NCBI GenBank assembly: GCA_012523015.1 | Contig: JAAYJI010000005.1 | Coordinates: 871 to 64,870 of the forward strand | Source: Candidatus Hydrogenedentota bacterium | GTDB taxonomy: Bacteria; Hydrogenedentota; Hydrogenedentia; Hydrogenedentales; CAITNO01 | Reading direction: 5' to 3' | Length of the DNA: 64,000 nt | In this document: positions 9,700 to 61,276 of the stretch, one piece after another | How positions within the stretch are numbered: position 1 is the first letter of the stretch | How the letters are laid out: each line of letters begins with the position of its first letter | The notes under the pieces: generated by a model | The model's database searches: none | What the model was told of the DNA's origin: nothing | Seen by the model: only the letters and a program-made list of their open reading frames with translations | Translations under genes and position numbers: made by a program

Positions 9700-12600
9700 T
9701 TGTTCTTCACATACAGGGACCCCCAATTGCAGGATAGAACCTCACCTATTCGGCTCAGGCGCTTGATACCAATCCTCCTGTTACTCGCCGTCGCCATAAT
9801 CATCCGCGCTTATGTTTTTCAGGAATATCGCGATGAACCTGATTATGGCTATCCAATGCATGATGCCGCCTTTAAGGACTACTGGGCGCGTGCTATTGTC
9901 ACAGGAGATTGGACACCACCACCGGGTAAAGACTCACCTTTTTGCGACTGGATGCCTTATTGCCATCCGCCTGCTTACCCGTGGTTTTTAGCCGGCGTGT
10001 ACAAAGTCTTCGGCTTGAATGCTGCCGCGCCCCGTTTAATACAGCTGCTGCTCGGATTATTTTCCATCCTGCTGCTCTACGATTTCACGCGTCGCTGTTT
10101 TCATCACGGGATCGCCTTCTTTGCTGCGCTGCTCATGTCGCTGTATTTTATTTTCCCCTTATATGACATGGATATTGGACAGACGAGCCTTGGTATCTTT
10201 TTGTTGTTGGCGACAGTGGATTTACTCGCCCTTTCTTTTTCCTCGCGATCCTATCGCCCCGTCTTTTGGGCGGGACTCGTTCTCGGCTGTCTTTTTCTCA
10301 CCCGTGGTGAGTTTATCGTTTTTCTACCCCTTTTCTTGTTGGTAGTCCTCTTTCGCCGGCCCCAAGGCAGCCGCCGACGTACAGCGCTCTTCAGTCCCCT
10401 TGTTTTGCTCCTTGCCCTTGCTATTCCTCTCGCGCCGGTAACGCTACGCAATTACCGCCATGCCGGCGTGTTCCCCGTGCTTTCCGGTGACGGCCCTATC
10501 CTTTTTTATTATTCTAACAATCCCTGGGCAACGGGATTTAATCCTGACTCACCCGATCTGCGCGCCTATAGCGATAACAACGAATGGTCCCTCTTTGCTT
10601 TTCCTAAAATGTATGAACGCTACGCGGAGGCTTCTGGCTTGCCGCCCCACGACTATACCGCATTGGTCGGGCATCTCACGCAAAAGGCGTGGCACTATAT
10701 TCGCAGTCATCCTCATGACTGGGCGCGCCTCGTTTTCAAGAAGGTCGTGTTGTTCTGGGGTCCGCAGGAGATTGATGAAAATAAAATCATTGCTTATGAC
10801 AAAAAGCATTCCGCTATACTACGCTATTTGCCGGGCTTCCCCTTTATAATGGGTATTTTCCTTTTGGGCGTGATCTTGCTCATTTTTGGAAAAGGGACGG
10901 GAACTTCCGAAAATATTTCTGAAAACGCTGTCCCCGTAAAACAACAACGGCTTCTAGGGGCATTATTTTTATTCTCTATCATACTGTACACGGGCATTTA
11001 CGCCATCTTTTATGTGACCGCACGGTATCGCGTTCCCATGATCCCCTTCATGATGATTTTCGGGGGAATCGCGCTGCATCAACTCTTTCTTCTAATCAGG
11101 GGCCGCCGATATCGTTATGGTATCGGATGGGCACTGCTTTTCGCCTGTTTTTATCTGCTGTCAAGCATTCAATGGATTCCTTTCACGCCCGACCGGGCAC
11201 GGTGGCACGATGAAAGACGGCAGGCATGGACAGCAACCAACCGACTTCGGGAGGGCGTGGACGATTTGCAGCGCTGGATCGCTTACCAGCCTGATGATGC
11301 TGACGCCTACTACAATCGGGGCGTGATGCTCTTTGATCTGAAAGAACAGGAAGCTTCCTTAACTTGTTTTCGAAAGGCGCTGGAAATTGATCCGGCTTAT
11401 CTGCAGGCTTATTATAATTTAGGTCTTGCCTACAGTGAGATGGGACACTATGAAGAGGCGGTTCAGGCTTTTCAATCGCGATTGCACGGAGCGCCGGAGG
11501 ATGCCGATAGTTGGTATGGACTCAGCCGTGTCTATGCCTATATGGGACAGGGCGCTGAACAAGGCGACACCTTGGAGAAGGCGGTTGCCGTAAATCCGCG
11601 GCATGCCCGCGCCTTGGTTGATCTTGCTGTTCTGCGCAAGGGACAGGGCGACGTACAGGCAGCGGAATCCTTGCTGCGACAGGCGCTGCGCTACAATCCC
11701 AATTACAGTATGGCGGCCTTTAATTTGGGACTTTTATTGAATGATCTCGGTCATTATAAAGCGGGCTTAGCGCAGCTGGAACAGGCGCTGATGGAAGACG
11801 AGGACAATCCGGAATTCCACTACAACACGGGCTTGGCGCTCATGCACCTGGGGCGGTACGAAGCGGCCGTGATGCAATTTAACGAGACGTTAAGGGTATC
11901 GCCCGATTACGGGGAGGTTTATTCGAACTTGGGTTTGTGTTTGGGGCGGCTGGGCCGTGAAATGGAAGCACGAGCAGCTTTCGACAAGGCCTTTGCACTG
12001 CTGCCCGAAGCGGTCGATACCCTCTACAATTATGGCTGTGCTTTGAAGGCGCTTGGCGACCTGCAAGAGGCAGAAAAGCATCTCCTTCAGGTTCTTGCTC
12101 TGAACCCTGACCATGGCAAAGCGCAATTCGAGCTGGGCGTCCTCTACATTAACAGCGGCGATTTCGAAAAGGCGCTGTCCCACTTGGAAGGAGCAGTGAA
12201 AACGCTGCACGGCGATCCGGAGATCCATTATAACCTTGGGCTCATCCGCCAGCGACAAGGCATGATACCGGAGGCTATGACTCATTTCTACGACGCCTTG
12301 AAGCGTGATCCCAAGCACTATGCGGCAAATTGCAGCGTGGCGACGGTGCTGCGGTCTCGGGGTGACGGGGCGGGCGCGCTGCCTTACCTGGAAATCGCTT
12401 TAGAGCAGACGCCCGAAGATGCCTCGTTGTTGTATGAACAAGGACTCGCTTTCTACGGGCTGCAGCGTTTTGAAGAAGCCTCTGCGTCGCTCGACAAATC
12501 AAAGGCAGCCGCCCCTGACCGTCCGCAGACGTGGAAGAATCTCGCGCTCAGCTTGCACGCAGCAGGAAAGAATGAGGAAGCGATCGATAATTTCACCCAA

Positions 12601-13998
12601 TATTTGGAGGAGGTTCCGGAGGACGACGGGGCGCGTACCGACCTGGGCATCACGTTCATCGATGCACAGCGTTTTGAGGAGGCGGAATCGCTGTTCAAGA
12701 TGCTCTTGCAAGACCACGATCAGGACGCCCGCCTGTATTACGATTATGGGCGTGCCTTGGCAGGATTGAAGCACTATGAAGCCGCTGTGGACGCCTTCAG
12801 AAATGCCTTGCATTGGGATGCCGGCTATATTGACGCCATGAACAGCCTCGCCTTCACCCTTTCTCTGATCGATAGGAACGAGGAAGCGGAGCAATGGTTG
12901 AAGCACGCCCTGTGTTTGGACGCGGTGAACGGGGACAGCTTCTTTAATTTAGGCTATGTGTACAGCGTCACGGGCCGCAGTGAGGAAGCGATGAACCGCT
13001 TTCGGGACCGCTTACGTATGGATCCCCACCATGGGCCGTCACTGCTCAATGTGGGGCTGCTTCTAGAGGAGCGCGGCGATAAAGAGGGGGCATTACAGGC
13101 CTTTCACGATGCGCTCGCCGCTGATGAATCCCTTGCCCTTGCTCATCACCATATGGCGGGGCTCCTTCGCGATGCCGGTGATGGGGAAGCTGCACTCACC
13201 CATTACAGACGTGCTTTGGAACTGGATCCTGATAATGTCAACACGCCGAAGAATCTGGGCTTCCTCTTGATACAGCTGAATCGAGAAGGTGAGGCAAAAG
13301 AATTGTTTGAACGTGCCCTGCAGGCGACGCCCGACGATGCAGATGCCCATGTCGGACTGGGCGATGTCTTGGCCGCGGAAAATAATCCAGACGCCGCACA
13401 ACAGCATTATGAACGTGCTCTTGCCTTGCAGCCGCAACATGCCTTGGCTTTGCGCCAGTATGGCTTTTTGCTCATGCGAAAAGGATTGGCTGCTGAAGCC
13501 TTGCAGTATTTTGAAAGGGCACTGCCTTTGTTGTCGGAGGATGCCGGACTTCATGTAGGCCTTGCCGATGCCTTAGCAGCGCGGGGCAGTACGGACGAGG
13601 CAGAACGCTATTACCGCGAAGCGATTGAACGCTATCCTGATTTTGATCTGGCATGGAATAATCTCGGAGATCTCCTTTCCCGCGACGGGCGCACTGTCGA
13701 AGCCATCGACGCTTTTGAACGGGCGCGTGTGCTTATGCCCGGAAACGCCAATGTTCTGTTGAACCTCGGACGCCTGTATATGCGTGAGAAAAAAAAGGAG
13801 CAAGCCCTTCAGGTACTTGAAGAGGCGCGCCGCATTGAGCCCGATAATTTGCGTGTCCGTGTGTTGCTCGGCGATATACAGCTTGAGTTGGGCAATGCCG
13901 CCGCTGCCATCAAAGAATATCAACAGGTCCTTCTCGAGCGGCCCGACTGGCAGGATGTACGGGAGAAACTGACCGCTGCCGGCGCCATAAAGGAATAA
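9700..13998 (+). CDS. Giant membrane protein: N-terminal GT-C-fold glycosyltransferase-like polytopic domain (PMT_2/GT39/ArnT-like, DE motif in the first loop) fused to a very long TPR array (TMTC-like architecture).
   Basis: First hydrophobic helix followed by YRDEPDYGY (the DE motif position of GT-C mannosyl/arabinosyltransferases), then about 11 TM segments and about 20 tandem 34-aa TPR units (recurring AYYNLG / A..L..A patterns). The start at 9700 is a TTG; the true start is uncertain (an alternative in-frame TTG lies near 9757). Confidence 0.75.
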   Translation: MFFTYRDPQLQDRTSPIRLRRLIPILLLLAVAIIIRAYVFQEYRDEPDYGYPMHDAAFKDYWARAIVTGDWTPPPGKDSPFCDWMPYCHPPAYPWFLAGVYKVFGLNAAAPRLIQLLLGLFSILLLYDFTRRCFHHGIAFFAALLMSLYFIFPLYDMDIGQTSLGIFLLLATVDLLALSFSSRSYRPVFWAGLVLGCLFLTRGEFIVFLPLFLLVVLFRRPQGSRRRTALFSPLVLLLALAIPLAPVTLRNYRHAGVFPVLSGDGPILFYYSNNPWATGFNPDSPDLRAYSDNNEWSLFAFPKMYERYAEASGLPPHDYTALVGHLTQKAWHYIRSHPHDWARLVFKKVVLFWGPQEIDENKIIAYDKKHSAILRYLPGFPFIMGIFLLGVILLIFGKGTGTSENISENAVPVKQQRLLGALFLFSIILYTGIYAIFYVTARYRVPMIPFMMIFGGIALHQLFLLIRGRRYRYGIGWALLFACFYLLSSIQWIPFTPDRARWHDERRQAWTATNRLREGVDDLQRWIAYQPDDADAYYNRGVMLFDLKEQEASLTCFRKALEIDPAYLQAYYNLGLAYSEMGHYEEAVQAFQSRLHGAPEDADSWYGLSRVYAYMGQGAEQGDTLEKAVAVNPRHARALVDLAVLRKGQGDVQAAESLLRQALRYNPNYSMAAFNLGLLLNDLGHYKAGLAQLEQALMEDEDNPEFHYNTGLALMHLGRYEAAVMQFNETLRVSPDYGEVYSNLGLCLGRLGREMEARAAFDKAFALLPEAVDTLYNYGCALKALGDLQEAEKHLLQVLALNPDHGKAQFELGVLYINSGDFEKALSHLEGAVKTLHGDPEIHYNLGLIRQRQGMIPEAMTHFYDALKRDPKHYAANCSVATVLRSRGDGAGALPYLEIALEQTPEDASLLYEQGLAFYGLQRFEEASASLDKSKAAAPDRPQTWKNLALSLHAAGKNEEAIDNFTQYLEEVPEDDGARTDLGITFIDAQRFEEAESLFKMLLQDHDQDARLYYDYGRALAGLKHYEAAVDAFRNALHWDAGYIDAMNSLAFTLSLIDRNEEAEQWLKHALCLDAVNGDSFFNLGYVYSVTGRSEEAMNRFRDRLRMDPHHGPSLLNVGLLLEERGDKEGALQAFHDALAADESLALAHHHMAGLLRDAGDGEAALTHYRRALELDPDNVNTPKNLGFLLIQLNREGEAKELFERALQATPDDADAHVGLGDVLAAENNPDAAQQHYERALALQPQHALALRQYGFLLMRKGLAAEALQYFERALPLLSEDAGLHVGLADALAARGSTDEAERYYREAIERYPDFDLAWNNLGDLLSRDGRTVEAIDAFERARVLMPGNANVLLNLGRLYMREKKKEQALQVLEEARRIEPDNLRVRVLLGDIQLELGNAAAAIKEYQQVLLERPDWQDVREKLTAAGAIKE

Positions 13999-14106
13999 AA
14001 GGAAACCCTTCCCTAATGCCGTGGGGCGGAGAACAAGAATTCCGATAGGTTGTTTTCTCGGTATGGCTGTTGGACTGTTACCACCCCCTTGGGCTATGAT
14101 TTGTCC

Positions 14107-17100
14107 ATGAATACAAAAGAAAAACAACATACGATTGCCGGTCTTTTTGTGCTCCTGTTAATCATGGGAATCGCTGTCATCCTTCGGTTGGTCGGGATTA
14201 CCAAGGAGTCTTTGTGGTGGGATGAATACGCCAGCCATGTGTATTTGAATACGCCTACCCTTTCCGACTTCCTCGCGTGGAATCTAAGCCTTGATCCGCT
14301 CAGCCTGCCCAGTTATTACAGTCTGGAATATTGGTGGACACACTATGTGCATGATTCCGTATTGAGTCTTCGGCTTCTGAGTGTTCTTATCGGTGTTGCC
14401 GTCATTCCCCTCGTCTACGGATTGGGCAGACGCATGGTGAGCCGACGTGCAGGTTTGTTGGCGGCCGCGCTGGTCGCCCTGTCGCCCAACCATATACACC
14501 ACGCCCAAGGTATACGCGCTTACGTTCTGTTTATATTCCTTACCGCCCTGGTCGTGTGGACCTTTATCCGCCTTCTCGAGGAGCGGCGCTTGTCATGGTG
14601 GGCAGCCCATGCTATTGCCTGCCTGCTCTTGTATTGGACCCATGCCTTTTCGGTCTTACTGCCTCTTTCCTTAGGTATTTTTTTGCTATTTCGTTTGAAG
14701 GTGTGGCGCGGCTTTCTCTTTCAGTGGGGCATCGTGCAAGTGATTTTATTGGCGCCCACAGCCTTTTATCTTTCCACGCTTCGGTTCTGGCCGCAAGATA
14801 CCACAGCACGCTGGATTGCACTGCCGGGCGTCTTATCCCTTGGCGCTGATCTCTTCTTCGACGATATTTCCGCCTTTCATTGGCAGTTTCGATTGGGCGC
14901 GATAGCAGCTTCCTTGGGATCGCTGCGCGTGGTTGTTGACCTTGTCTTTGCCGTACTGATCCTAGTCGGTCTTTTACAAGTTGCGGCGAGTGGGGCGCGA
15001 AAGAAGACACAAGATTCCGCCTCCAAAAATAACTATGGACTCCTTTTTTATCTCTGGCTTCTTATCTCGCCCATAAGTTTATTTATACTGTCTTGGACAA
15101 TGCGCCCTTGTATGTTTCCGCGCTATACGATTCATAGTACCCTTGCCTTATACCTGCTTTTGGGCGCAGCATTTGGAGCGTCCAAAATTCCCGGTCGCCG
15201 TCTCGTATTGCCCTTGCTCCTTTGCGGACTCATGTTTCTCCAATGGTTTTGGCTGCAGCCGGGTCCGCAGCGCAGCGATTGGCGTTCCGCCGCACTCTTC
15301 CTTCAAGAACAGGCTGCGCCTCACGATGTATTGCTGGTTAAGAACAGGCTTAGCCGAAATATTTTTCTACACAATATGGAAGTATTGACACCGCAAAACC
15401 TAGAGATTCCTGTGGCTTCAGCGAGTACTTATTCCCTTTTAGCCGCGCAGACTGCTCTGTGTCTAGGCATACTTCCTTCGGAGACGGAAGACACACGAGT
15501 CTGGGTGCTCGTGGCTATGGACTATTTTGAGCCGGGCCCGCCCCAAGATTTTGAGCGTTATCTTGAAGAATGGTCTATTCCTTTTGAACGCTGGTCTTTT
15601 CCTGCCATTCGCGAAATCTATATCTATCGCATGGACAGGGGAACGGCAGCCCTGCCCGATTCTATAGAAGCTTTATATACGGACTCGGACATCAAAAAAG
15701 ACAGCTTAGCGGGAGACCTGGAGCATCACAGCATGCAAGCTTTCGGAGAGCTTGCAACGGCTCTGGCTTTGCAAGGAGAACGAGAGGCGGCAAAAGAAAT
15801 CTTTGACGGTATTTTTAAGATCAATACCTTCGCCAAAGAAATCTATGGGAATTTTCGTAAAGCCTTGGATGCGGCTGAAGAACTCGATACCAAGGCAGCA
15901 GCCATCGAAACGCTTTGGCAAGCCTATGGTTTGCGCAAGAATGTTCAGCCGCGCCTCATGCTGCAGGCGTTTCAAAAGGCGGCGGCTTTGGATCCCATGC
16001 TTGCCCTCGCTCATGTCGAAATAGGGCTGGAGCTGGCACAACAAGGAACCTATACCGAAGCGAGAGAAGCGTTACTGCTTGCAATGAATGCCGATGATCG
16101 GTATCGTGATATGCTCTCCAGTCTCGTTGATGCATTGGCAAATGGTCAGGACATTCCCGCAAAATTAAGCGCTGTTATGGACTATCGTGAGGCGCTTTTA
16201 GCACTCAGCACCGGCGACACGGAAAAAGCGCAACGTATGCTGCAACATGCCCGCGCGACTGATCCCCAACTGGTTGCTGCTCAGCTTATGCTTGCCTATG
16301 TCTGGGTCGACGGGGACAGCGATGAAGACGTAGAAGCACTGCTGCAGCAGTATCTAAGCGCCACCGACCGTCCTCTTATTGATAGTTTTGCTTATCTTGC
16401 AATGATTCTAACTGAACATAACAACCTGGACCGCGCCGCCAACACCATGAAGATGCTTTTTGACACAGATACTCAGACCCGCAAGAGCTACGACAGTTTA
16501 GCGAAAGCCCTTGCATCGGGCGAAGGTGTGTCCGAAGCAGCGTTATCAATCCGCAGCATGTGGGAAGGCTTTGATGCAGCGGCGAATGCAAAGGAAGAAC
16601 AAGCGCTGAGCGCCTTTGCCAAAGCAGTGGAAATAAATCCCGACAATAACCCGGCGGCCCTTGAATTAGCGCTTCATCTGGTTGCTGCGAAGCGACAGGA
16701 AGAGGCGCTTCCCTTGCTTCTGCGTGTTGCTGAAAAAGACCCCGATTATAGGACGATGACCGAGTTTCTCATTCACGATATACGCAGCGGGGCTGATACG
16801 ACGGCGAGCCTCAACGGGATCAACGCCTATCGGCGCGGAATCCTTGCACAGAGCCGCGGCGAGTATGAAGAGGCGGTGACAGCGTTGGAGGAGGCGGTGC
16901 AGGCGGATCCGCGACTCGAAGCCGCCCATACGTCGCGGGTATTTAACTTAATTATTCTGCGTAGATTTGAAGAGGCGATGGCAGGGCTTAACCGCTATCT
17001 TGATGGAACAGAGCATCCGTCGCCCGGAGCCTTTGGGCTTCTTACCGTGCTTTACATTGCCAACAAGGATACGGAACAAGCCGTCGAGTCGTACCGGACT

Positions 17101-17925
17101 GCCATGAGTATGGATGACAGCTACGCGCAGCAATTCGGACCGATCTTTTTCGCGGCCTTGGAGATGCGCGACTACGACAAGCTCCGACAGGAGATGGATC
17201 AACTGAAAAAGGCAGGTGTCGACCTCTATCCGCTCATGGATGAAATCACCCGCGATTATTTGGCAAATACTGAGCCTCGTTCCGAAGCTGAGATTGCCCT
17301 TCAAAAAATGAAAGAAGAGAACCGATACTGGGCAGATATGCAGCGTTTTGCCGAGGAAGATGAGGCAGAAACACCCGTTCCCGGCGATATCCTCTTTACC
17401 GGCAGCTCCACGGCTCGCATGTGGGATGTGAAGAAGTTTTTCCCCGATTTACCTGTTGTGAATCGCGGCTTTGGCGGCTCTGTGTATAAAGAAGTGACTC
17501 TCTTCCACAAGGAGATCGTGCGCAGCCACCAGCCCTCCATCCTTGTTTTGTATTCCGGTGATAACGACGTTTTCAGAAATGAGACCGCTGAAGAGACAGC
17601 ACAAGATGGATTGGATGCTGTAGATGCGCTGCGCACAGTGGCACCGAAGGCGCAGATTATTGTGATCAGCACCAAACCCAGTGCTTCCCGCTGGCAGTAT
17701 GCGCCGGTCATGCTCGCCGCCAATGGGATTATCGCTGAACAGCTTGCCACGCGGGAAAACATGATCTTCGTCGATCTTGTTCCTTTGCTTCTGGATGAGA
17801 AGGGCTTGCCCGATCCCGTATGTTTCCGTGACGACGAATTACATTTAAGCGATGAAGGATACCGTCGCTGGAGCGAAGCGCTGCGACCCTACCTCATCAA
17901 AGCCGGAGAAACAACAGAAAACTGA
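14107..17925 (+). CDS. Giant three-module membrane protein: GT-C-like polytopic domain (PMT_2/GT39-like, WWDEY motif), TPR-like helical repeats, and a C-terminal SGNH/GDSL hydrolase domain.
   Basis: ATG at 14107 (MNTKEKQHTIAGLF) precedes the first TM; LWWDEYASH DE motif; multi-TM region to about aa 400; helical repeat region. The C-terminus has the SGNH blocks in canonical order: FTGSS (block I Ser), GFGGS (block II Gly), YSGDNDV (block III GxND), DELHLSDEGY (block V DxxH). Confidence 0.75.
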   Translation: MNTKEKQHTIAGLFVLLLIMGIAVILRLVGITKESLWWDEYASHVYLNTPTLSDFLAWNLSLDPLSLPSYYSLEYWWTHYVHDSVLSLRLLSVLIGVAVIPLVYGLGRRMVSRRAGLLAAALVALSPNHIHHAQGIRAYVLFIFLTALVVWTFIRLLEERRLSWWAAHAIACLLLYWTHAFSVLLPLSLGIFLLFRLKVWRGFLFQWGIVQVILLAPTAFYLSTLRFWPQDTTARWIALPGVLSLGADLFFDDISAFHWQFRLGAIAASLGSLRVVVDLVFAVLILVGLLQVAASGARKKTQDSASKNNYGLLFYLWLLISPISLFILSWTMRPCMFPRYTIHSTLALYLLLGAAFGASKIPGRRLVLPLLLCGLMFLQWFWLQPGPQRSDWRSAALFLQEQAAPHDVLLVKNRLSRNIFLHNMEVLTPQNLEIPVASASTYSLLAAQTALCLGILPSETEDTRVWVLVAMDYFEPGPPQDFERYLEEWSIPFERWSFPAIREIYIYRMDRGTAALPDSIEALYTDSDIKKDSLAGDLEHHSMQAFGELATALALQGEREAAKEIFDGIFKINTFAKEIYGNFRKALDAAEELDTKAAAIETLWQAYGLRKNVQPRLMLQAFQKAAALDPMLALAHVEIGLELAQQGTYTEAREALLLAMNADDRYRDMLSSLVDALANGQDIPAKLSAVMDYREALLALSTGDTEKAQRMLQHARATDPQLVAAQLMLAYVWVDGDSDEDVEALLQQYLSATDRPLIDSFAYLAMILTEHNNLDRAANTMKMLFDTDTQTRKSYDSLAKALASGEGVSEAALSIRSMWEGFDAAANAKEEQALSAFAKAVEINPDNNPAALELALHLVAAKRQEEALPLLLRVAEKDPDYRTMTEFLIHDIRSGADTTASLNGINAYRRGILAQSRGEYEEAVTALEEAVQADPRLEAAHTSRVFNLIILRRFEEAMAGLNRYLDGTEHPSPGAFGLLTVLYIANKDTEQAVESYRTAMSMDDSYAQQFGPIFFAALEMRDYDKLRQEMDQLKKAGVDLYPLMDEITRDYLANTEPRSEAEIALQKMKEENRYWADMQRFAEEDEAETPVPGDILFTGSSTARMWDVKKFFPDLPVVNRGFGGSVYKEVTLFHKEIVRSHQPSILVLYSGDNDVFRNETAEETAQDGLDAVDALRTVAPKAQIIVISTKPSASRWQYAPVMLAANGIIAEQLATRENMIFVDLVPLLLDEKGLPDPVCFRDDELHLSDEGYRRWSEALRPYLIKAGETTEN

Positions 17926-17983: not shown

Positions 17984-20782
17984 TTATTGATTCATGATAA
18001 ACACACCACTATATCCCAAGGGAATATAGGCGGTATGGTCGACAAAAGAAATCTTCCACGGATAAGACATGGTCGATTCCAGCGCTTTCAATTCAGGATT
18101 CGAGCCGCTGAAATCGTATTGAGCAATGACGGTTCCCGAAACGGTCAAATACAGATGATTTGCGTGTGCGCCCAAGAGTGTACACCATTCCGTGCTTACG
18201 GGTTTTTGTGCCGTCAATTCGATCATACCTTCTTGGGTCAAAATATACTTGCCGATGTGATACGACAGGTTACTGTCTCTATCGGTGTCATTTGTCGTGG
18301 AAGTAGACACGTCCCCGTCAAGCGTTTCATCAACCGTATAGGGCATACCGACGAAATATAGCTTCTCTTCATCAGGCATAAAACTCTGGTAGTCAGATTC
18401 CAAGACGACCGTGTCAACCAACGCAGCCCGGCTGTCTGAAAGGATGACCGAATGGAGCACTGTGGCAAGGGTATTGTCCTTGTTGTATTGGTGATCTTTA
18501 AAGTATGCGTAATTCGTACCCGTCACCCTGTGAATGATAAGTCCGGGCACATTGATGCGTTGCCCCAGCGTGCGGTCAAAGGGATTGAGCGATTGCAGAA
18601 AATAGGCGCACCGGGGCTGCATGCTGTTGGCACTATAAAGCGTGTCGTAGGAGCTGATATAAATCAAATGACCTTCCGCCGTAACTTGCTCTATATTCTG
18701 TGTGCCTAAGCTTAGATAATGGGGAGCTGCGGGATCGGCAAGATCCAAGACTGCAAAAATATGTTCAAAGCGCGTCCTCCACCAATCTGACTGAGAACGG
18801 CCTCCGTGAAGGACAAGGAAATCACCGGCTAAGAAAGCGGTGTTTCCTGAGTAATAACCGTTAGTATAGGGTCGGTAAAACATGCCTTCTGCGGGATATA
18901 TACCGCCCCAATACCCCCACCCCCAAAGGGGCTCAATATCTGCGACCCAATTCCCGATTTCGACGGGGTGAAAAACGTCACTGAAATCGACCAAACTGAT
19001 TTCATAGCGGGCGCTGTATTCGGGTTCATAGCCGTAGGCCTTCGTGACCAAAACAATACTGTTATGCCAAGGGAAAGCCTGAGACAGTTCTGTATTTTTC
19101 AAGACGAATGTGCCCGCCTCTTCTCCGCCCGGATGAGACAGGGCACGCAATACCGTTTCTTGACGTCCGTGGGGCGCCAAAAGTTCGACGATCGCGCCAT
19201 TTTCCAGAAGCAGCACATCAATGATATTTTCCGCAAGGACAAGATTGTTTTTTACAACAGGCAGAGATAAGTCCGATCCGTCAATGATGGCAAGTTCTTC
19301 TTGAGTCACGCCATAAAACAAATTATCATAGGCAAAGGAACGCACAATTTCAGATTGCACATCAACGCGGCCGCGCACCGTCAAGCGGTCACGCTGCCAC
19401 GAAACAAATTGCAGACGGTTATAAGGTTTGTCCTCTTCTTTGTTAAAACCGCTTACGGGGATCAGCAAGATATCATCGAAAATGGAGAGGGATTTGACGT
19501 CATTATAGGCGGATGACCAAGACCACTCGTCGCCGAAACTGACATAGTCAAGCCGTTTAGGGGCCGCCGGATCGTGTACATCAAAGAGGCTTACCATAAC
19601 ACGGCGCCCTTCAGAATCATCCACGCCAAGCGCAATTAACCGATCGCCCCGTGTTTCAATATGCGTAGACCATCCGGGCACTTCCAATTCACCTGCCACG
19701 TATGGATTTCGCGGGTCTGTTAAGTCGACGATAAAAAGGGGATCCACGTTGAAATAAGTGACGATATAGGCCCGAGGACCATCGAAACGGGTGGCGAAAA
19801 GACTGTCGCCTTCAGCACTTTCGAGGGCAGTCTGCCCCAATTGTATCAGGCTGTCGGGATTGGTAATATCAAAAACGGTCACAATCGTTTGACGGTTTTG
19901 TCCCCATGTATTAGTCACGGTTCGCAAACTACCCTGCCAAGCATCCATTTTGAAACGATCTGCCATATACCCGGGCACTATAGTGGAGCCGCGCAGCATG
20001 ATTTTCCCTTTTGGATCACTAATATCCACGTAGTCAATGCGGCTGTTTCCGCTGCCATAATCGTGGCTTACGGTGAAAATGGCGTTCTCCGTAGCGTAAA
20101 TAAGGTTTCCGTATCCTTCAAAGAGAAGTTGGTCAGCCACGTAGATATTTTCCGGGGTAGTAATGTTAATGGCTGTCGCGCCGGTGGTGCCGTAGGATAC
20201 GGTTTCGGAGTCGGCACTTGTCCCGTCTTGGCTGTATTCGTACCAACTGTAATCGCTTGTGACCACATAGAGGGTATTCCCCACCATGCGGCTGTCGACA
20301 AGATCGCCATCAAACCCGAAAGTGCCGCGGGTCGTGATCTTCGTCGGGTCGTTGATATCCAGCACATAGAGCATGGAGCCATACGTGACACGGATGAGTT
20401 CATTCTCTACAGAGACATTACGTGCGTAACTGACCAACACGTAAGCCTGATCATTGACCAAATATAAATCACGGGGATAACCGTTTACAGGCGTCTGTGA
20501 TAACAGCTCTTCCCGTGCCATATCCACAATGGTCAATCCTCTGTATTGATTCAAAATGAATAAAAGATCTCCGGAACGGCGGATGACATCCGGTTCCACT
20601 AATTCCCGGTCGGAATGCTCTTCCTCATTTGCCTCAGGGGAACCGTCTAATGCACCCCAAACAAACTCACGCATAGTCGTGTTGAGATTTGCACTGGTAA
20701 ATTGAAGGTCTTTGTCCGAGCACCCGGCCAAGACACCCATCACTACAGACGCTACGACTGAGAAAGAAAAGATGAATCGCAT
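17984..20782 (-). CDS. Large lipoprotein (about 930 aa), probably a beta-propeller repeat cell-surface protein; function unknown.
   Basis: Signal peptide with lipobox LAGC (MRFIFSFSVVASVVMGVLAGC); long Y/G/D/T-rich beta-strand-like repeats. Start placed at the ATG of MRFIF, which has an AAGGGA RBS, rather than the upstream MEIRDLST start. Confidence 0.55.
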   Translation of the reverse strand: MRFIFSFSVVASVVMGVLAGCSDKDLQFTSANLNTTMREFVWGALDGSPEANEEEHSDRELVEPDVIRRSGDLLFILNQYRGLTIVDMAREELLSQTPVNGYPRDLYLVNDQAYVLVSYARNVSVENELIRVTYGSMLYVLDINDPTKITTRGTFGFDGDLVDSRMVGNTLYVVTSDYSWYEYSQDGTSADSETVSYGTTGATAINITTPENIYVADQLLFEGYGNLIYATENAIFTVSHDYGSGNSRIDYVDISDPKGKIMLRGSTIVPGYMADRFKMDAWQGSLRTVTNTWGQNRQTIVTVFDITNPDSLIQLGQTALESAEGDSLFATRFDGPRAYIVTYFNVDPLFIVDLTDPRNPYVAGELEVPGWSTHIETRGDRLIALGVDDSEGRRVMVSLFDVHDPAAPKRLDYVSFGDEWSWSSAYNDVKSLSIFDDILLIPVSGFNKEEDKPYNRLQFVSWQRDRLTVRGRVDVQSEIVRSFAYDNLFYGVTQEELAIIDGSDLSLPVVKNNLVLAENIIDVLLLENGAIVELLAPHGRQETVLRALSHPGGEEAGTFVLKNTELSQAFPWHNSIVLVTKAYGYEPEYSARYEISLVDFSDVFHPVEIGNWVADIEPLWGWGYWGGIYPAEGMFYRPYTNGYYSGNTAFLAGDFLVLHGGRSQSDWWRTRFEHIFAVLDLADPAAPHYLSLGTQNIEQVTAEGHLIYISSYDTLYSANSMQPRCAYFLQSLNPFDRTLGQRINVPGLIIHRVTGTNYAYFKDHQYNKDNTLATVLHSVILSDSRAALVDTVVLESDYQSFMPDEEKLYFVGMPYTVDETLDGDVSTSTTNDTDRDSNLSYHIGKYILTQEGMIELTAQKPVSTEWCTLLGAHANHLYLTVSGTVIAQYDFSGSNPELKALESTMSYPWKISFVDHTAYIPLGYSGVFIMNQ

Positions 20783-20948
20783 TGTACTCAAGTCCCTTAT
20801 TTCCATCGTTGTGGAGAATCATCACTTCAGTATGTAAATCCCAAAGGGATTATTATCCATCTGTATTGCGTGGAAAGACAAACACAGGAGCACGTATAAC
20901 CTACTCCCATATTCATTATACAATCGAGTACAAACTATGTGTCAGATT

Positions 20949-26569: not shown

Positions 26570-26612
26570 CAAGGACTTGATCACAAAGCGCTTGCCGTCG
26601 GCAGGGATAAGG

Positions 26613-27821: not shown

Positions 27822-27873
27822 GATTCAACATCAAGGGCGGTGTACGAAGAAAGGTTTAATACCTAGCTTCGGT

Positions 27874-29034: not shown

Positions 29035-29132
29035 TGTATTTTCTCCTTTTCCGTTAAGATCATGTGCGTTGTTGGCACGGAATCGTCTGATTCAAGTATT
29101 CATGACGATACAGGTCATGAACACAGCTTCTA

Positions 29133-32504
<3,372 letters not shown>

Positions 32505-39635: not shown

Positions 39636-39675
39636 TGCGCCTCTAGTGCCCTTGTTTTTTGCTGAAAGGAATACG

Positions 39676-42600
39676 CGTGAAATCGAGGTGGACACAGCGC
39701 CTATTTTCGCATAGCCCTATCATAGACATTCTTTTAGCCTTCTTGATCTTTTGTATAGGCGGCGCTGTCGGCTATGGACATTTACGTTCGCTGCGCACCG
39801 ATCGTTCCTCTGTGACCGGCATTGAACTGCTCTATGGTCCTGCTGCTATGCTCGTTCAAGGCAAAGGCTTTATTTCACCCAACGTCCTAGAGTACCCGGA
39901 GCTGCGCGCCTTCTTAAATGGCGAAATTGAATCCCTTCCCGAAGACGCCGTTCCGGAAATCGTCGTGGAAAGTCCCTCACAAGTAGCCACGTATCATCGC
40001 TATTTAAATTATAGTGTGGCACTCTTTTGGCGGCTCTTTGGTATTTCGTGGACCAGTACGGAACCTTTGCTTGCGCTGCTCTTTGCGTGGTCAAGCCTTG
40101 CTATTTATGGGTTGATGCGGCTTGGGATGCGCCGCTCCATCGCTTTCGTTCTCGTGTTTTTGGTAATACTTTCTCCGGCAATGTTGGGGCGTATCACAGA
40201 ATTACGGGATTTCAGCAAGGCTCCTTTTATCCTGAGTGTATTGTGGGGCTTAGGTTGGGCTATCCGACACAAGATCTCCTCGCGCCAATTATTATTTCTC
40301 TCCATTGTCTTGGGCGTGACCATCGGTATTGGCTGCGGGTTCAGGATGGATCTCGTTGTTTTCATGCCTTTGGCTTGGGCGGTCTTGAGTGTTGTCGCCT
40401 TACGTGTGGACGGGACAGGTAGGTCGCGCTTGCGCCCTTTAATGTCAGTGCTTCTTTTACCTCTTTGTTTTTTGATCACAATCCTACCATTGTTTACAGA
40501 AATAGAGGGACCAACCCACCCTAATCACCACTTAGTACAAGGTCTCTCCACGAAACGACAATACAATCTAGGACTGCTTCCTGCATCTTACAGACCCTTG
40601 TCCTCAGGCTCAGACTGCTATGTGTTTTCTGCTATCCAATCGCATATGCGCAGAACAAGCGGCGAAAACAAAAGTAATTTTTCCTTAGATACCTCAGGTG
40701 CCGATGTGGCAGGAACGAATTGGCTTAAATCGGCTATTGGCTATTTTCCCGCTGATTTTCTTGCCAGAGCTTATGGCGCCGTCTTGAGGAATCTGCGCTA
40801 TGCCGATGCCTATCCGCACACCTTTGCTATGCCCACGAAAGGGCACGCGTATATGTATTCTTTTCATCATAAGCTGGCGGCTCATTTGAATCGCTTCGGG
40901 CTGGTTTACGCAGTGGCTGTTCTCCTCATCTTGGCGGTTCATCAGCCCTTGTGGGCATTGGGCATCTTTTTCTTCGTCCTATACGTATTGGGATATATTG
41001 GGCTCCAGTGTGAATACCGACATGCTTTTCCCCTTGCTTTTTTCCCTTTTTGGATCCTTGGTTTTTTGCTCAATTGGACACTGATTTTTACCGTTCATCT
41101 CTACAAACGCGGTGTGCCCCCCAAAGGGTGGTGGATTGTTTCCGGTATCCGCGCCGCCGTATTTTTATCTCTATGTTTTATTTTGCTGATCGCGCCGCTC
41201 ATGGTATCGCGCATCTACCAAGAACACAAGATCAGACCTTTATTGAATCTGTATAGAAAGGCGGAAACGACACCTGTGCCGGTCCGTATGGAAAGTAAAC
41301 ACGGTTGGACTCTATTTGCCCCTGAGAACACTTCGGCAAGAGGTCCCGCGGATTCGGATCTTCAAACCCTTTATAAAATCCTTGCCGGATTTTTCAATCC
41401 CGAATTTCGTCTCTGGCATGTGCGGACGCGGCTGATGATGGTCGAATTAAAGGCCGATGCCTGCGTAGAATGGCTCATACAAAAATATGATTCCGTGATA
41501 AACCTCAACGACTTTTCGCAACTCTTGCCTTTGCCCTATGTCTCCGAAAAGAGCCATAACATCCGCTACTACTTTCCCGTTTATGAGCTGCTTATGCCGC
41601 TCGTTGATAAGGAGTTCTTGCTAGGTAGAAATCGCTTTCAAGGGATCGCATTGCCCGATGATCAAGCAGACGCTTTTCTCGGGTTCTACGAAGTGTCACC
41701 GCCTGATGAACTGGATTTTTTGATGCAGGTGGCGCTTACGGACGATGCCGGTTCTGAAAAATGCTATCAACGAATTAACGGATTGCCTGATCCGCTCCTG
41801 TATTATCAAGAAGAAATGAACGCCGTGGACAATCCTAATTTGTTTTTTGCAGCACAAAGTTTCGGACGTAAAGAAGAAGCCTGTTTTCTCGCCCGCGCAC
41901 AATTGGTCTTGAGCCGAAAACCTGAAACACGCATACTCATTAGCGATTTGCTATTTAGAGAGGGGCAGACGGAGGAGGCTTTGGATGCTGCATTCGCTAT
42001 TAATCCCCGTACCGAGGACGAAAAGAGCCGCCAGTTGAGACTGTTGGAAGTGATTGGCCATCAGTATCTGATTGAAGACAAAATAAGTGAAGCAGAATAT
42101 ATTTATCGCTTTATATGGGATCAGAAATCCGAGAAACGCAGTCCTTTACGCATACAGCTGGCAGGGGCGATGTGCGCGAAAGACCCTGATAAAGCTTTCG
42201 AACAATACCGTTTCGTCTTGGAAGAAGAACCGGATAATGAAGTCGCTGTTAACGGTATGATCTCTTTGCTCCAAAGCAGCGCCACGACGGAAGAGCAATT
42301 GTCGTTTTGGAAAGATTTGACTGAACAGCACCCCCAATCCCTTTATCCTTGGTTACAGCTTGGGATCACTTTGGAAAGGGCCGGTTTAGATGCCGCCGCC
42401 GCTGATGCCTATGGGAAGGCCTATCCCACACACAAAGATCATCCGGAACTGATGCTTCGTTATAAGATTGCCCAAAAAGGAATTGCTTATTTCCTATCGG
42501 ATAGAAAAGAACTGCTCCGCATCTTGGGCGAGCATCCTCTGCTGGAAGACGTCGTGATATTTTATATTGATCGGGAAGGGCGCCGTTTACTCGCCGCTAA

Positions 42601-44479
42601 TGAGGTGAGCAAAGCCATGGATACGTACCAGCGTGCACTGGATTATTTCCCCGACAGTGAAAGGCTGGCGCTGGGACGGGCGAAGGCTTTTTCTTTGGGA
42701 AACGAATTTGAACCGGCTATGGAGCTTTTAAAAAGCTTGATCAATGGCTCTATGGCAGAGGAAACCGTTGCGTGGATGGATCAGATGCTGAGCCGCCCCG
42801 ATAAAGACGCTCTCTCTTATTGGCAAGAGCTGGGAAAAGAATTTCCTGAGAATAAAGCCATTCACGATTTGATTCTTCGCAAACAAGAGGTCCAAGGGCG
42901 GGCTGCTTTTGAATCGGGAGAGTATTCGGCTGCTCTCGACATTCTGAAAACAATGGATTCCACTGAGGACATCGGTGCGAGTCTTCCCATCTTGATAGCT
43001 CTATCAGAGATCGCAACGGGAGCAGAAGCCAACGACGCACAAAAGATTTTGACTCAAATTGAGGCACGGCCCGAACTGAAGGATGATGCGATTGGGTGGA
43101 TCCTCATGGTCTTGGATCAGCTTCACGACGAAGGACGGACGAATGCCATGGAGCGGCTGGGACAAGTGACCGTCGCCCTAGCTCCCGAAAAAGAGCGAGG
43201 CTGGCGCCTTCGGATTCTTGCCCATCTTGAACAGCGCGAGACCGAGCGCGCTTTGGCCTTGTGTGAAGAGGCGCTGTCCAACGTGGAAGACTTGAGCGAA
43301 ATTCTTCCGCTCGTGCAGCGCAGTTGTGATAAACCGGAACGGCTGTTGCAGATATGGCAGGACTTGGATCGTAAACGTCCCGCACATCCGCTCATACGAC
43401 GTTATCTTGCCCGTGCCTATGAAGCCAATAACCGCTATGTAGAGGCGGCCGAACTATATAAAAACTTGAGCGAATCCGAAAACTTTCCCCGTGATCTTGT
43501 TTTTAATCAAGGCTGCGCATTGATCGGAGCGGGGAACTGGGGGCATGGCGTGGCGCTGGTACGGAAGTCTTTGGACGCAAGTTCTCCTTACGCGCCTGTC
43601 ATGGTTGAACAATTAATGGCGCTGGGTGAAGGCTTTCTCAAAGAAGAAAAACCGTCCAGAGCGGAGTTGATGTATTCCTTTGCCTCTGCGATGGCGCCCG
43701 ACTCAAGCTTCGTCTTATTGCGTTTAGGTCAGACGCAATTGGCTTGGGGAAAGACGGAACGTGCTGTTAAAAGCTGGGTTCAGGCGATCCGGGTCGAAGC
43801 CGATAGTGGCGCCGCCGCACAAGCCGCGCATTTCTTGTTCCACCATCTTCCCGAGGAGATGCAATTGGAGACATGGTTATCTTTAACCGAAGACGGGGAA
43901 GAGGAATCACCCTTGCCTTATGCCTATAGCGTATTGGCATGGGTAAAAGCAGGCGATATAAGCGAAGCACAGCGCTTAGCCGACAAGCTGTCCGCAATGC
44001 ATCCGCAATCGTCGGAAGCCCTTTGGATTACGGGTGTATTGGCTTGCCTTGCGGGAAATGAGGACTTGGGTATTGACCAAATTCGTACGGCGGCAAAAGA
44101 ACGCCCGGAACTTGTCGACGACAGCGCTCGCTTCCTAGCAGATGTGGCACTTCAAAATAAGGATAACGAAGGGCTCGTACAGGCGGAGCGTTTATTGAGG
44201 ACAGCGCAAAAGCTGGAACCGGAAAACTTGTCTCATTTCATGCATTTGGGAGAGGTCTTGCTCCGCGCAGGTGTTATTGATGAAGCGATCGAGCAATTCA
44301 CCCGTCTGCTAATGCGTGAACCGGAATCTCTTAAAACAGCGGAGCTTTTAGATGCCGCCTATACGGCAAAAAATGATCCGGAAGCACGTTTGCAAGGATG
44401 GCAGGCAATTAGTAACGTCCATCCCACTGCGCATTTGCCACGACAACGCCTCGAAAAACTCGAGAAAGGGCCGCGGTGA
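39676..44479 (+). CDS. Giant membrane protein (about 1600 aa): N-terminal polytopic (about 12 TM) domain of unknown family, possibly GT-C-like, plus a C-terminal TPR-like helical repeat array; third paralog of the 9700 and 14107 proteins.
   Basis: Long hydrophobic N-terminal region (aa 20 to about 520) with multiple predicted TM helices, then about 1000 aa of A/L/E-rich repeats with TPR-like periodicity. Start placed at the GTG at 39676, which has an AAAGGAA RBS; the track ORF starts at a TTG at 39659. Confidence 0.6.
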
Positions 44480-50622: not shown

Positions 50623-50682
50623 TAGAATAAATTGCGGTTCCTTCCGAATCCGTGTGTATTATCACTGTCACTAATTGTTGCC

Positions 50683-61129: not shown

Positions 61130-61276
61130 ATCATTTTTTGCTATGATAAAAGAATATACTTATCGCCATCGTAAAAGCGTCCCGTAATTACATGATGTTT
61201 TATTGTGACTTATGGGCATCATTTGCTACTGCCATAGCAAGGTGTTAGATACTTTTACAGAAGGAAAAGTAAAATT

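Follow-up and report, generated by a model that had tools for sequence, protein, structure and literature searches.

Two neighbouring, co-directional genes from uncultivated Candidatus Hydrogenedentota each appear to encode a membrane-bound glycosyltransferase of the GT-C type with a long C-terminal arm. What do these proteins modify, and do they work together? The genes, A and B, lie in a 64,000-nucleotide stretch of DNA (the window), which also contains many glycan-degrading genes. A sequence-only reading of the window had described two adjacent co-directional open reading frames of 1432 and about 1272 amino acids, and the ORF coordinates bear this out. We saw nothing resembling a terminator in the A-B spacer, and the regional counts of such sites are not above chance. 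The features are:

9700..13998, + strand: gene A (1432 amino acids, TTG start), putative GT-C (PMT_2) glycosyltransferase with a very long, predicted periplasmic TPR array (ORF; Pfam PMT_2 and many TPR families)
9700..11190, + strand: membrane GT-C module of A, residues 1–497, with 11 helices; EL1 (44–108) and EL4 (256–379) are large and predicted to be periplasmic
11197..13950, + strand: array of ~27 canonical 34-residue TPRs in A, residues 500–1417 (Pfam; our own repeat HMM)
13999..14106, + strand: A-B spacer, 108 bp
14050/14107..17925, + strand: ORF B, 1291 amino acids from a TTG or 1272 amino acids from an ATG
14107..17925, + strand: gene B as numbered here (1272 amino acids), putative GT-C (PMT_2) module, alpha/beta domain, TPR-like repeats and SGNH hydrolase (ORF; Pfam)
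14107..15261, + strand: membrane GT-C module of B, residues 1–385, with 11 helices
15280..15636, + strand: predicted periplasmic alpha/beta domain of B, residues about 392–510 (AF2 strands)
15724..17286, + strand: degenerate TPR-like helical repeats of B, residues about 540–1060 (Pfam; PDB profile matches)
17362..17901, + strand: C-terminal SGNH/GDSL hydrolase domain of B, residues about 1086–1265 (Lipase_GDSL_2)
39659..44479, + strand: ORF C (1606 amino acids), remote GT-C-like membrane domain and degenerate TPR-like region, outside the A-B unit

Two membrane proteins and their arms

The sequence-only reading had assigned both membrane domains to the GT-C type, and a profile search agrees. 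Against a gathering score of 26.1 bits for Pfam's PMT_2 (PF13231, clan CL0111), A scores 60–63 bits (60.4–62.7) and B scores 38–40 bits (38.2–40.2). Both modules have high-confidence AF2 models whose best structural matches are exclusively GT-C enzymes, and the secondary structure of these models gives 11 helices each, which supports the N-terminal polytopic domains of the earlier description. As modelled, GT-C enzymes that modify proteins are not set apart by fold rank from those that modify lipids or glycans: the best match for A is ArnT, and for B the scores of ALG12 and AglB are near that of Pmt4.

In both modules, all of the K/R-rich loops share the side of the N-terminus, with the acidic and conserved loops on the opposite side, an alternation that is consistent with N-in topology. 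The computed topology has a cytoplasmic N-terminus, whereas the loops of the active site and the whole C-terminal part are periplasmic. EL1 is thus predicted to be periplasmic in both proteins, as the earlier reading had it. The TPR regions are also predicted to be periplasmic, which is comparable to their luminal location in TMTC1–4 and TMEM260 (PMC7801869, PMC10214176).

The sequence-only reading proposed an acidic DE pair right after helix 1 as the catalytic position. Both strings are present directly after helix 1 (YRDEPDYGY at residues 43–51 of A and LWWDEYASH at residues 36–44 of B), and the proposal suits B, whose invariant EL1 residues are E34, W37, D39, and E40 (WWDE). It does not suit A: among 58 aligned A-family sequences, D45 is kept in 7 and E46 in 5, and the near-invariant acid of EL1 is instead D55 (D/E in 57/58). 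Judged by their place where the first loop helix begins, D55 of A and D39/E40 of B are probably equivalent to D55 of ArnT or D77 of Pmt1. The A family also conserves E/D156 (58/58), R202, R250, N251 (58/58), E357, and, in EL5, R442/R444 (R444 in 58/58). In the B family, D39, E40, R89, and Y139 are found in all 41 sequences, and the EL5 motif R333-P-C-x-x-P-R339-Y340 is invariant in outline (R339 itself in 40/41). The near-invariant polar residues of both proteins all lie within predicted periplasmic loops.

Could A, B, or both be non-catalytic scaffolds, with the GT-C fold merely anchoring a TPR arm in the membrane? D45 and E46 of A are not conserved, and we found no conserved acid in EL1 of the ORF C family, as might be expected of pseudo-enzymes. 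However, A keeps D55 and the other residues listed above, B keeps its own set (including R339), and the location of these residues in periplasmic loops is as expected of active GT-C enzymes (PMC7801869). We consider a scaffold role to be very improbable; A and B are very probably active GT-C enzymes.

The layout of a membrane domain followed by TPRs was correct for A, which has about 27 of them. Its array matches TPR_1/2/8/16/19 from Pfam (E down to 1e-100), and our own repeat HMM finds units spaced strictly 34 residues apart between 534 and 1416, about 26–27 of them in register and without interruption. The length of the array is maintained in A orthologues (22–25 matches in loci L003, L022, and L072); the orthologue in L003 aligns with A along 1392 residues at 61% identity, with a single gap. 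As a description of B this layout was too simple, because an alpha/beta domain, degenerate repeats, and an SGNH domain follow the membrane module. The AF2 strands of the alpha/beta domain are at 408–412, 436–439, 465–470, 493–498, and 504–509, with helices between them, and D391, D407, W466, and Y507 are conserved in this region. The repeat array of ~500 residues is degenerate: TPR_19, TPR_2, TPR_11, TPR_8, and TPR_14 score above the Pfam cut-offs, with only some of the repeats reaching these thresholds. The B-family profile also matches TPR proteins in the PDB. The repeats are grouped as roughly 220-residue super-repeats, and the L003 orthologue has one more of these.

The sequence-only reading also suggested a paralog expansion, with ORF C as a third copy. 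By BLASTP, A and B match at E = 0.52; comparing their membrane modules with hhalign gives 97.2% (E = 3.7e-11). They are remote homologues, related at the profile level only. As for ORF C, its membrane domain (residues 1–734) has no match in Pfam or NCBIfam. Its family (1216 representatives) is related to the A family only remotely (hhalign 90.7%, E = 1.3e-6, 412 columns), and 10 of 45 family members match PMT_2. Rather than recent copies, A, B, and C are three lineages that split long ago, and each has orthologues of its own. We found 143 homologues of A (25–52% identity across the whole membrane domain) from Hydrogenedentota, Planctomycetota, Verrucomicrobiota, Sumerlaeota, Zixibacteria, and Acidobacteriota. 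B is a GT-C lineage that is restricted to one phylum; full-length orthologues are in L001, L003, and L077, and a 99%-identical protein is present in SRR8925718.

SGNH hydrolases within and beside B

The C-terminal domain of B matches Lipase_GDSL_2 (51.5 bits versus a cut-off of 32.9; E = 2e-13), with intact SGNH catalytic residues (S1101, G1123/G1124, N1153, D1243, and H1246). Its relatives in the PDB are 7pzg/6njc (sialate O-acetylesterase / lysophospholipase L1, E = 2e-11) and PAF-AH Ib. The domain is fused to B in four lineages (the window, L001, L003, and L077; 47–50% identity). The motif residues are kept in all of the fused orthologues and in stand-alone relatives, which have signal peptides.

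Separate genes for signal-anchored (membrane-anchored) GDSL proteins lie beside B-family genes in 26/75 loci, so the fusion in B mirrors a conserved neighbourhood. The signal anchors of these flanking proteins look uncleaved, unlike secretion signals, which suggests that the proteins stay at the inner membrane beside the GT-C enzymes. Orthologues of A are directly upstream of orthologues of B in two other MAGs (L003 and L022), and in L072 the order is B, then A. Counting the window, 17 loci have an A-family and a B-family gene less than 10 kb apart; L077 has an orthologue of B without an adjoining A. A long-TPR GT-C, a second GT-C, and a fused or adjacent SGNH form a conserved three-part module that recurs across the Hydrogenedentota. 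The SGNH domain and this conserved neighbourhood of A, B, and GDSL genes were overlooked by the sequence-only reading and are the most informative features of the locus.

Another view of the GDSL/SGNH proteins is that they are nutrient-scavenging lipases or esterases of a saprophyte, and that the GT-C/TPR proteins glycosylate, fold, or anchor them as clients. On this view, B would carry its own client as a fused domain, unless the gene fusion was accidental. There are up to four GDSL paralogues around each B-family gene, which is more than one editing step needs; pilA-tfpW is a known adjacency of a client and a GT-C/TPR enzyme (10.1101/2020.04.19.049825); and glycan-degrading genes are abundant in the window. 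On the other hand, the uncleaved-looking anchors point to an inner-membrane location next to the GT-C enzymes, and each of the four lineages with the fusion has kept the SGNH and its catalytic residues, as would fit a domain that works as part of the same machine. We think that the GDSL proteins are improbable as clients and that a functional partnership of A, B, and SGNH is quite probable.

Proposed reaction and candidate acceptors

The analysis itself shows the fold, the computed topology, the conserved residues, the domain make-up, and the conserved neighbourhood; the donor type, the joint action of A, B, and SGNH, and the kind of acceptor are inferred, as follows. A and B would be two inner-membrane GT-C glycosyltransferases that diverged long ago and are both catalytically competent. 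Each would take a polyprenyl-phosphate-linked sugar at the periplasmic face and pass it to an acceptor that is held by the enzyme's own TPR arm. The general base would be D55 in A and D39/E40 in B, and EL5 arginines (R442/R444 in A and R339 in B) would bind the donor phosphate. A and B would share a target, for instance with each adding a different sugar or with one enzyme initiating and the other extending. The SGNH domain that is tethered to B, or the set of membrane-anchored GDSL proteins in related genomes, would remove or move an O-acyl group on this shared target. In L046-type loci, an A-like gene abuts a gene for a GT2 protein that ends in TM helices and resembles the polyprenyl-phosphate sugar synthases AglJ, PpgS, and ArnC. 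Beside A-B, in the window as in L001/L003, there is no gene for such a synthase, for a flippase, or for an obvious substrate.

The most likely class of target would be secreted or envelope proteins, with O-glycosylation of Ser/Thr as by TMTC, TMEM260, PMT, and TfpW. GT-C proteins with TPRs and protein acceptors include TMTC1–4 (PMC7801869), TMEM260 (PMC10214176), and TfpW (10.1101/2020.04.19.049825). We give a protein acceptor somewhat less than an even chance.

The acceptor might instead be an envelope glycan or lipid; candidates are the LPS core, lipid A (which ArnT modifies), an exopolysaccharide, and other glycolipids. In that case, the TPR arms would guide or hold a polymer across the periplasm, as in PgaA, BcsC, AlgK, and PelB, and the SGNH domain would strip O-acetyl groups from the sugar polymer or O-acylate it. 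SGNH domains act mainly on carbohydrates, removing or adding acyl groups (PMC9487903), so a glycan acceptor fits this domain at least as well as a protein does; the closest solved relatives of the SGNH domain of B are carbohydrate O-acetylesterases. TPR arms also bind polysaccharide in PgaA-type systems, where the TPR of PgaA binds the polymer and modulates an esterase-type partner (PMC9384988). Related clusters carry sugar-modifying genes (DegT aminotransferase, WbuX amidotransferase, and GT2), and a superhelix of 27 TPRs, as our repeat HMM implies, could reach far into the periplasm. In contrast, no polysaccharide synthase, export, or Wzx/Wzy gene adjoins A-B in the window or in L001/L003. 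With the ArnT equivalog model (NF009784), A scores 23.2 bits versus a cut-off of 567 and B has no match, and ArnT has 13 helices and no TPR (PMC7801869). Also, the TPR-armed GT-C enzymes that have been characterised so far (TMTC, TMEM260, and TfpW) all modify proteins. We view a glycan or lipid acceptor as a real possibility, though a doubtful one.

We give the full explanation (paired GT-C enzymes and an SGNH hydrolase, most likely acting on secreted or envelope proteins) somewhat less than an even chance. A bolder version is that A, B, and SGNH are a self-contained, Hydrogenedentota-specific machine for periplasmic glycosylation and editing. Two GT-Cs would decorate envelope or secreted proteins, a built-in esterase would edit O-acyl groups on the glycan or the lipid-linked donor, and the 27-TPR arm of A would be a periplasm-spanning ruler or a multi-client scaffold. 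We consider this version to be unlikely.

Because the three-part module is conserved, one can put forward, as a testable hypothesis, that glycosyl transfer and O-acyl editing are partnered on the periplasmic side. The catalytic residues to mutate are defined, and the soluble SGNH and TPR domains can be expressed without culturing the organism.

Comparison with known systems

The client-specific protein O-mannosyltransferases of animals (TMTC1–4 and TMEM260) are GT-C enzymes with a TPR arm. TMTC1–4 (CAZy GT105), which O-mannosylate cadherins in metazoa, resemble A and B in having an 11-helix GT-C module with a cytoplasmic N-terminus, a C-terminal TPR arm on the active-site side, an acid at the catalytic position of the first extracytoplasmic loop, and, in the loop joining TM9 to TM10, a conserved Arg (PMC7801869). 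They also share a PMT_2-type signal, with sequence similarity limited to the generic PMT_2 model. The sequence-only reading called A and B TMTC-like, which is apt for the 11 TM helices and the TPRs on the active-site side, but not as family membership. All human TMTCs contain the DUF1736 segment in the TM7-TM8 loop (E < 1e-30), and TMTC1–4 have a strict DD and SHKSYRP in EL1, KET(Q)xxT in EL3, and ERxxY in EL5 (PMC7801869). The membrane domains of A and B have no match to DUF1736 at E ≤ 1. A comparison of strings, as distinct from a residue-level TMTC alignment, found neither SHKSYRP nor KETxxT in A or B, and in place of DD there is a single conserved Asp (D55) in A and DE in B. With no DUF1736 in either protein and a single Asp in A, membership of the TMTC family is not supported. 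The arms differ as well (27 TPRs in A; a degenerate array, alpha/beta domain, and SGNH in B), and the compartment is the bacterial periplasm instead of the ER. TMEM260, a DUF2723 O-mannosyltransferase with catalytic Asp52 in loop 1 and known distant homologues in bacteria, likewise joins an 11-TM GT-C module to a C-terminal domain that is partly TPR (PMC10214176); a TMEM260-like model matches B at no better than E = 0.32 and has no match in A.

Bacterial GT-C+TPR relatives are very numerous in the databases, and a substrate is known for TfpW only. The sequence-only reading had stated that bacterial versions of this architecture have no demonstrated substrate, yet TfpW of P. aeruginosa is an O-D-arabinofuranosyl transferase that glycosylates pilin (bioRxiv 10.1101/2020.04.19.049825). 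It has an 11-TM GT-C module, modelled on ArnT, with an essential acidic motif in periplasmic loop 1, and a periplasmic TPR (10.1101/2020.04.19.049825). By description, it is like A and B: a bacterial inner-membrane GT-C with 11 predicted helices and a C-terminal periplasmic TPR. Unlike them, it has just 646 amino acids, a short TPR, and no SGNH, and its gene is directly downstream of pilA. No prepilin or pilin gene is near A-B within the window, so A and B are not of the TfpW type by gene placement; a prepilin-like (prepilin-type HX9DG) gene is 3' of the B orthologues in L001 and L003.

ArnT (GT83) modifies lipid A with 13 helices and no TPR, whereas A and B have 11 helices and a TPR arm; these differences and the low equivalog score set A and B apart from ArnT. 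PMT/POMT (GT39) enzymes are dimeric and have a MIR domain in a large loop. We found no match to PF02366 (PMT) or MIR in A or B, which sets them apart from this family; a few B-family homologues have a precomputed match to PF02366. A does belong to the widespread bacterial PMT_2+TPR proteins, which are annotated as "tetratricopeptide repeat protein" or "glycosyltransferase family 39 protein." Typical members have 600–880 amino acids and 3–10 TPRs, while A and its Hydrogenedentota orthologues have 1286–1432 amino acids and 22–27 TPRs. In the literature that we searched, we found no function for any of these widespread proteins. If the acceptor is a protein, TMTC-type client-specific O-glycosylation would extend to bacteria.

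OatA and OafA/B are of the AT3-SGNH type, in which the SGNH domain is tethered to a polytopic membrane enzyme. Along with AlgX/AlgJ and PgaA-PgaB, they resemble B in pairing a periplasmic SGNH-fold domain with such an enzyme. These SGNH carbohydrate modifiers edit the O-acyl groups of extracytoplasmic glycans, some with a TPR scaffold (PMC9487903, PMC9384988). In these systems, an acyltransferase (AT3/MBOAT) takes the place that the GT-C glycosyltransferase has in B, and we saw no AT3 or MBOAT gene near A-B. If A, B, and SGNH do form a self-contained machine, B would be the first case of an SGNH editing domain built into a GT-C glycosyltransferase, and the machine would be a bacterial counterpart of the client-specific O-glycosylation systems of TMTC and TMEM260.

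Genes A and B and their membrane domains

Genes A and B are co-directional open reading frames separated by 108 bp:

Gene A: 9700-13998, + strand, ORF of 1432 amino acids with a TTG start
Gene B: 14107-17925, + strand, ORF of 1272 amino acids from an ATG, or 1291 from an upstream TTG

Chance would not be expected to give ORFs anywhere near this length, and close relatives of both are found elsewhere. For instance, a protein that is 99% identical to B, in the same gene context, is found in the public run SRR8925718. In a promoter and terminator scan of the A-B region, site counts were at chance level, and the scan did not settle the operon structure.

Pfam identifies PMT_2 in residues 89-242 of A (E = 3e-16) and residues 81-211 of B (E = 2e-9). 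The TPR signal in A is very strong (TPR_2, E = 1e-100), and several TPR models are over threshold in B. In addition, residues 1114-1254 of B match Lipase_GDSL_2 (E = 2e-13). The sequence-only reading had described a tandem pair of GT-C genes with TPR arrays; this was largely right, but it missed the SGNH domain of B.

A is a long-armed member of a very common bacterial family of PMT_2 proteins with TPRs, which is itself uncharacterised. For B, a degenerate-pattern scan with one genome per species found relatives at 75 loci. Essentially all of these are from metagenome-assembled genomes (MAGs) of Candidatus Hydrogenedentota, with 2-4 paralogues per genome. B belongs to a GT-C lineage that is apparently confined to this phylum. 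Some of the bins carry a Nitrospirales label: L006, L013, L026, L043, L050, L052, L054, L061-L064, L067, L069, L071, and L072 are from "uncultured Nitrospirales/Nitrospiraceae" MAGs. Their B-family genes and clusters are identical in kind to those of the Hydrogenedentota MAGs, and these taxonomic labels may be wrong.

AlphaFold models built from the family alignments have high scores (pLDDT 91.4 and pTM 0.92 for residues 1-567 of A; pLDDT 90.3 and pTM 0.90 for residues 1-638 of B), and each model contains 11 membrane helices.

Fold-comparison figures for the two models
A model: ArnT 20.4, Pmt4 19.6, ALG12 19.2, AglB 18.3, STT3B 18.2
B model: Pmt4 25.6, ALG12 24.8, AglB 24.4, ArnT 21.9, Pmt2 21.0, STT3B 20.9

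Foldseek returned the identical set of enzymes. Because all of the best structural matches are GT-C enzymes, we assign the GT-C fold to both proteins; Pfam and the models thus bear out the proposed architecture of a GT-C membrane domain followed by TPRs. The ranking does not separate the protein-, lipid-, and glycan-modifying enzymes. When we compared the membrane domains to PDB chains, using either single sequences or N-terminal-only family profiles, we found nothing meaningful, so it is Pfam and the predicted fold that link A and B to GT-C enzymes of known structure. A profile that included the TPR part matched TPR proteins only and was discarded.

The short loops that are rich in lysine and arginine (127-136, 181-186, 217-228, 398-417, and 467-474 in A; 104-113, 158-162, 195-200, 294-310, and 358-364 in B) lie on the same side as the N-terminus, which is also K/R-rich. 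Applied to these loops, the positive-inside rule predicts a cytoplasmic N-terminus and a periplasmic location for loop 1, for the large loop between TM7 and TM8, and for the whole part after helix 11. The same topology has been reported for TMTC1-4, TMEM260, and TfpW, the pilin glycosyltransferase of P. aeruginosa (PMC7801869; PMC10214176; 10.1101/2020.04.19.049825).

The residues that are invariant or almost so in the B family include E34, W37, D39, and E40 (motif ESxWWDE), which agrees with the DE motif (LWWDEYASH) that had been placed at the catalytic-loop position. D63, R89, R137, Y139, H179, D248/D252/D253, and R333-P-C-x-x-P-R339-Y340 are similarly conserved, and all of these residues are in predicted periplasmic loops. 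The acidic pair proposed for A does not hold: among 58 members of the A family, D45 is found in just 7/58 and E46 in 5/58. The conserved acid is instead D55 (D or E in 57/58), at the start of the first loop helix and in the same structural position as D39 in B's own model. E/D156, R202, R250, N251, E357, R442, and R444 are also nearly invariant. In the TM9-TM10 loop, ARYRVP of A falls on PRYT of B when the profiles of the two families are aligned; TMTCs have a strictly conserved arginine (ERxxY) in this loop (PMC7801869). This pattern of conservation argues for A and B being active enzymes rather than scaffolds. The numbering of D55, D156, and R202 in A nearly coincides with D55, D158, and K203 of ArnT, but we gave this coincidence of numbers no weight.

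The membrane domains of A and B are barely similar by BLASTP (E = 0.52), which led us to reject a recent tandem duplication and, with it, the earlier suggestion of recent paralogy. When the family alignments are compared with hhalign, the two are related with 97.2% probability (E = 3.7e-11, 342 columns). A and B are thus ancient relatives.

C-terminal arms and a conserved neighbourhood

In A, 34-residue repeats run in strict register from 534 to about 1417 and, together with one earlier repeat, make about 27 TPRs. Ordinary members of the A family have 600-880 amino acids, while the Hydrogenedentota orthologues (1286-1428 amino acids) keep 22-25 detectable TPRs. The alignment of A with its orthologue at locus L003 spans 1392 residues at 61% identity and needs only one gap, so the length of the array is itself conserved. 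This unusually long, length-conserved arm is a second point of interest, besides the neighbourhood described below.

After helix 11, B has a conserved alpha/beta domain (392-510), then a stretch of about 500 residues in which degenerate TPR-like repeats form super-repeats of about 220 residues, and then the SGNH domain. The orthologue at L003 carries an additional super-repeat. Among solved structures, the SGNH domain comes closest to sialate O-acetylesterase or "lysophospholipase L1" (7pzg, 6njc; E = 2e-11) and PAF acetylhydrolase Ib. S1101, the glycine, N1153, and the Asp-x-x-His motif (D1243, H1246) are kept in all of the fused orthologues. The nearest stand-alone relatives are GDSL esterases of 215-340 amino acids with signal peptides, and the closest of these are from Hydrogenedentota.

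Our main new result, and the chief interest of the locus, is a conserved module of two GT-C proteins and an SGNH esterase, rather than the mere existence of TMTC-like proteins in bacteria. Using family HMMs, we found A-family and B-family genes no more than 10 kb apart at 17 loci, including the window. The A orthologue is directly upstream of the B orthologue at L003 and L022, and at L072 the order is reversed. The SGNH domain is fused to B in the window and at L001, L003, and L077; the last of these lacks A alongside.

Elsewhere, the esterases are separate genes. At L060 (Ca. Hydrogenedens terephthalaticus) and L062, a B-family gene of 739 amino acids sits between two pairs of GDSL genes, one pair upstream and divergent, the other downstream and co-directional; a convergent A-like gene of 1353 amino acids comes next. 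All four GDSL proteins of L060 have an N-terminal signal anchor, and most have the GxS serine motif and the C-terminal DxxH. Relatives of these genes lie beside B-family genes at 26/75 loci. These are L060 (7445-15227), L062 (4102-11825), and 24 further loci, with 2-4 signal-anchored GDSL/SGNH genes around a B-family gene of about 735 amino acids, often with a convergent A-like gene of about 1350 amino acids and a DegT aminotransferase. The cluster of GDSL/SGNH, B-family, and A-like genes is conserved across the phylum, and we view the fusion in B as the fused form of what, at other loci, is an association of neighbouring genes. Fused or separate, the esterase stays attached to the inner membrane on its periplasmic side.

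Another type of cluster is found at L046 (7303-21513) and L051 (636-13374), which both contain:

B-family gene
Two B12-binding radical SAM genes
WbuX-like N-acetyl-sugar amidotransferase
Alpha/beta hydrolase, glucuronoyl/acetyl-xylan-esterase-like
GT2 glycosyltransferase
One or two A-like genes of 880 amino acids

The GT2 is AglJ/PpgS/ArnC-like, has C-terminal membrane helices, and adjoins an A-like gene. By its best hits it is a putative polyprenyl-phosphate sugar synthase, and its location supports a polyprenyl-phosphate monosaccharide as the donor. Near A-B in the window, or downstream of the L001 and L003 orthologues, we found no genes for donor synthesis (GT2), flippases, polysaccharide export, or substrates.

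Directly after the SGNH-bearing B orthologues, L003 (10976-12022) and L001 (5841-6890) encode a 350-residue protein (78% identity between the copies) that has an N-terminal methylation motif of the prepilin type and, at the C-terminus, an H-X9-DG domain. This resembles the pilA-tfpW arrangement. We set this protein aside as a client because the window lacks an equivalent.

ORF C and the rest of the window

The supposed third copy is a remote relative of the A family:

ORF C: 39659-44479, + strand, GT-C-like membrane protein

BLASTP against the A family gives E = 0.085, and hhalign gives 90.7% probability (E = 1.3e-6, 412 columns in register). The membrane domain of ORF C has no match in Pfam or NCBIfam. 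Its family has 1216 representatives, and a PMT_2 match was obtained for 10 of 45 members. D184, GFRxD (R229, D231), D366, and R454-H455 are invariant in the family; no acid is conserved in the first loop. The C family, which has no Pfam model of its own, may be a GT-C subfamily that is not yet described. The GT4 gene just upstream (38469-39635, + strand) is BshA (TIGR03999, E = 1.7e-148, above the cut-off), which points to bacillithiol synthesis in this genome rather than to a glycosylation partner of C.

The remainder of the window encodes TolB, an LptB-like ABC ATPase, GH2, a BNR sialidase-like protein, GH116-N, BshA, PntAB, and UvrC, which fits a diderm saprophyte. The regions 24494-32492 and 58841-63685 encode beta-helix/GH141-like, BNR_2 sialidase-like, GH2 beta-galactosidase, 10-repeat FG-GAP, and GH116-N proteins, and these glycan-degradation genes are consistent with a saprophytic lifestyle. 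Convergent on the end of gene B is a lipoprotein-like protein of 940 amino acids with a Beta_propel domain (17984-20806, - strand; PF09826, E = 3e-71). Its gene is also present in the same-strain contig L076, and is not beside the B orthologues at L001, L003, or L077. Five ORFs of 293-624 amino acids lack a Pfam family (4202-6076, -; 6295-7821, +; 20949-22403, -; 50632-51600, +; 55183-56064, +); the one of 508 amino acids has a sub-threshold TAT signal only.

Proposed activity and comparison with known families

We propose that A and B are active GT-C transferases that work at the periplasmic face: they would take a sugar from a polyprenyl-phosphate carrier and add it to an acceptor that the TPR arm presents. 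The genes are found together repeatedly, which suggests a single target for the A-type and B-type enzymes and the SGNH esterases. Both the acceptor and the sugar of the donor are inferred in this scheme, as is the direction in which the SGNH domain reacts. Every characterised GT-C protein with a TPR arm (TMTC1-4, TMEM260, and TfpW) modifies proteins, so we rank protein O-glycosylation first. A glycan or lipid acceptor is close behind, because ArnT is the best structural match of A, SGNH enzymes are mainly carbohydrate (de)acylases (PMC9487903), and in PgaA-PgaB a TPR scaffold binds polysaccharide and steers an esterase-type partner (PMC9384988).

In the literature, which we covered in part, we found no earlier description of SGNH fused to GT-C, as in the window's clade of the B lineage (weak evidence of absence), and no characterised bacterial PMT_2 protein with TPRs besides TfpW. 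TfpW itself contradicts the earlier view that such bacterial proteins have no demonstrated substrate. Among the known families, A and B differ from PMT in lacking PF02366 and the MIR domain, and from ArnT in their low match to the ArnT model (23 bits for A versus a cut-off of 567, and no hit for B) and in having 11 helices instead of 13. Nor do they belong to the TMTCs, as had been proposed: they do not match DUF1736, the TMTC hallmark, and no DD, SHKSYRP, or KETxxT motif was seen in them. In architecture and topology, A and B are like TMTC, TMEM260, and TfpW.
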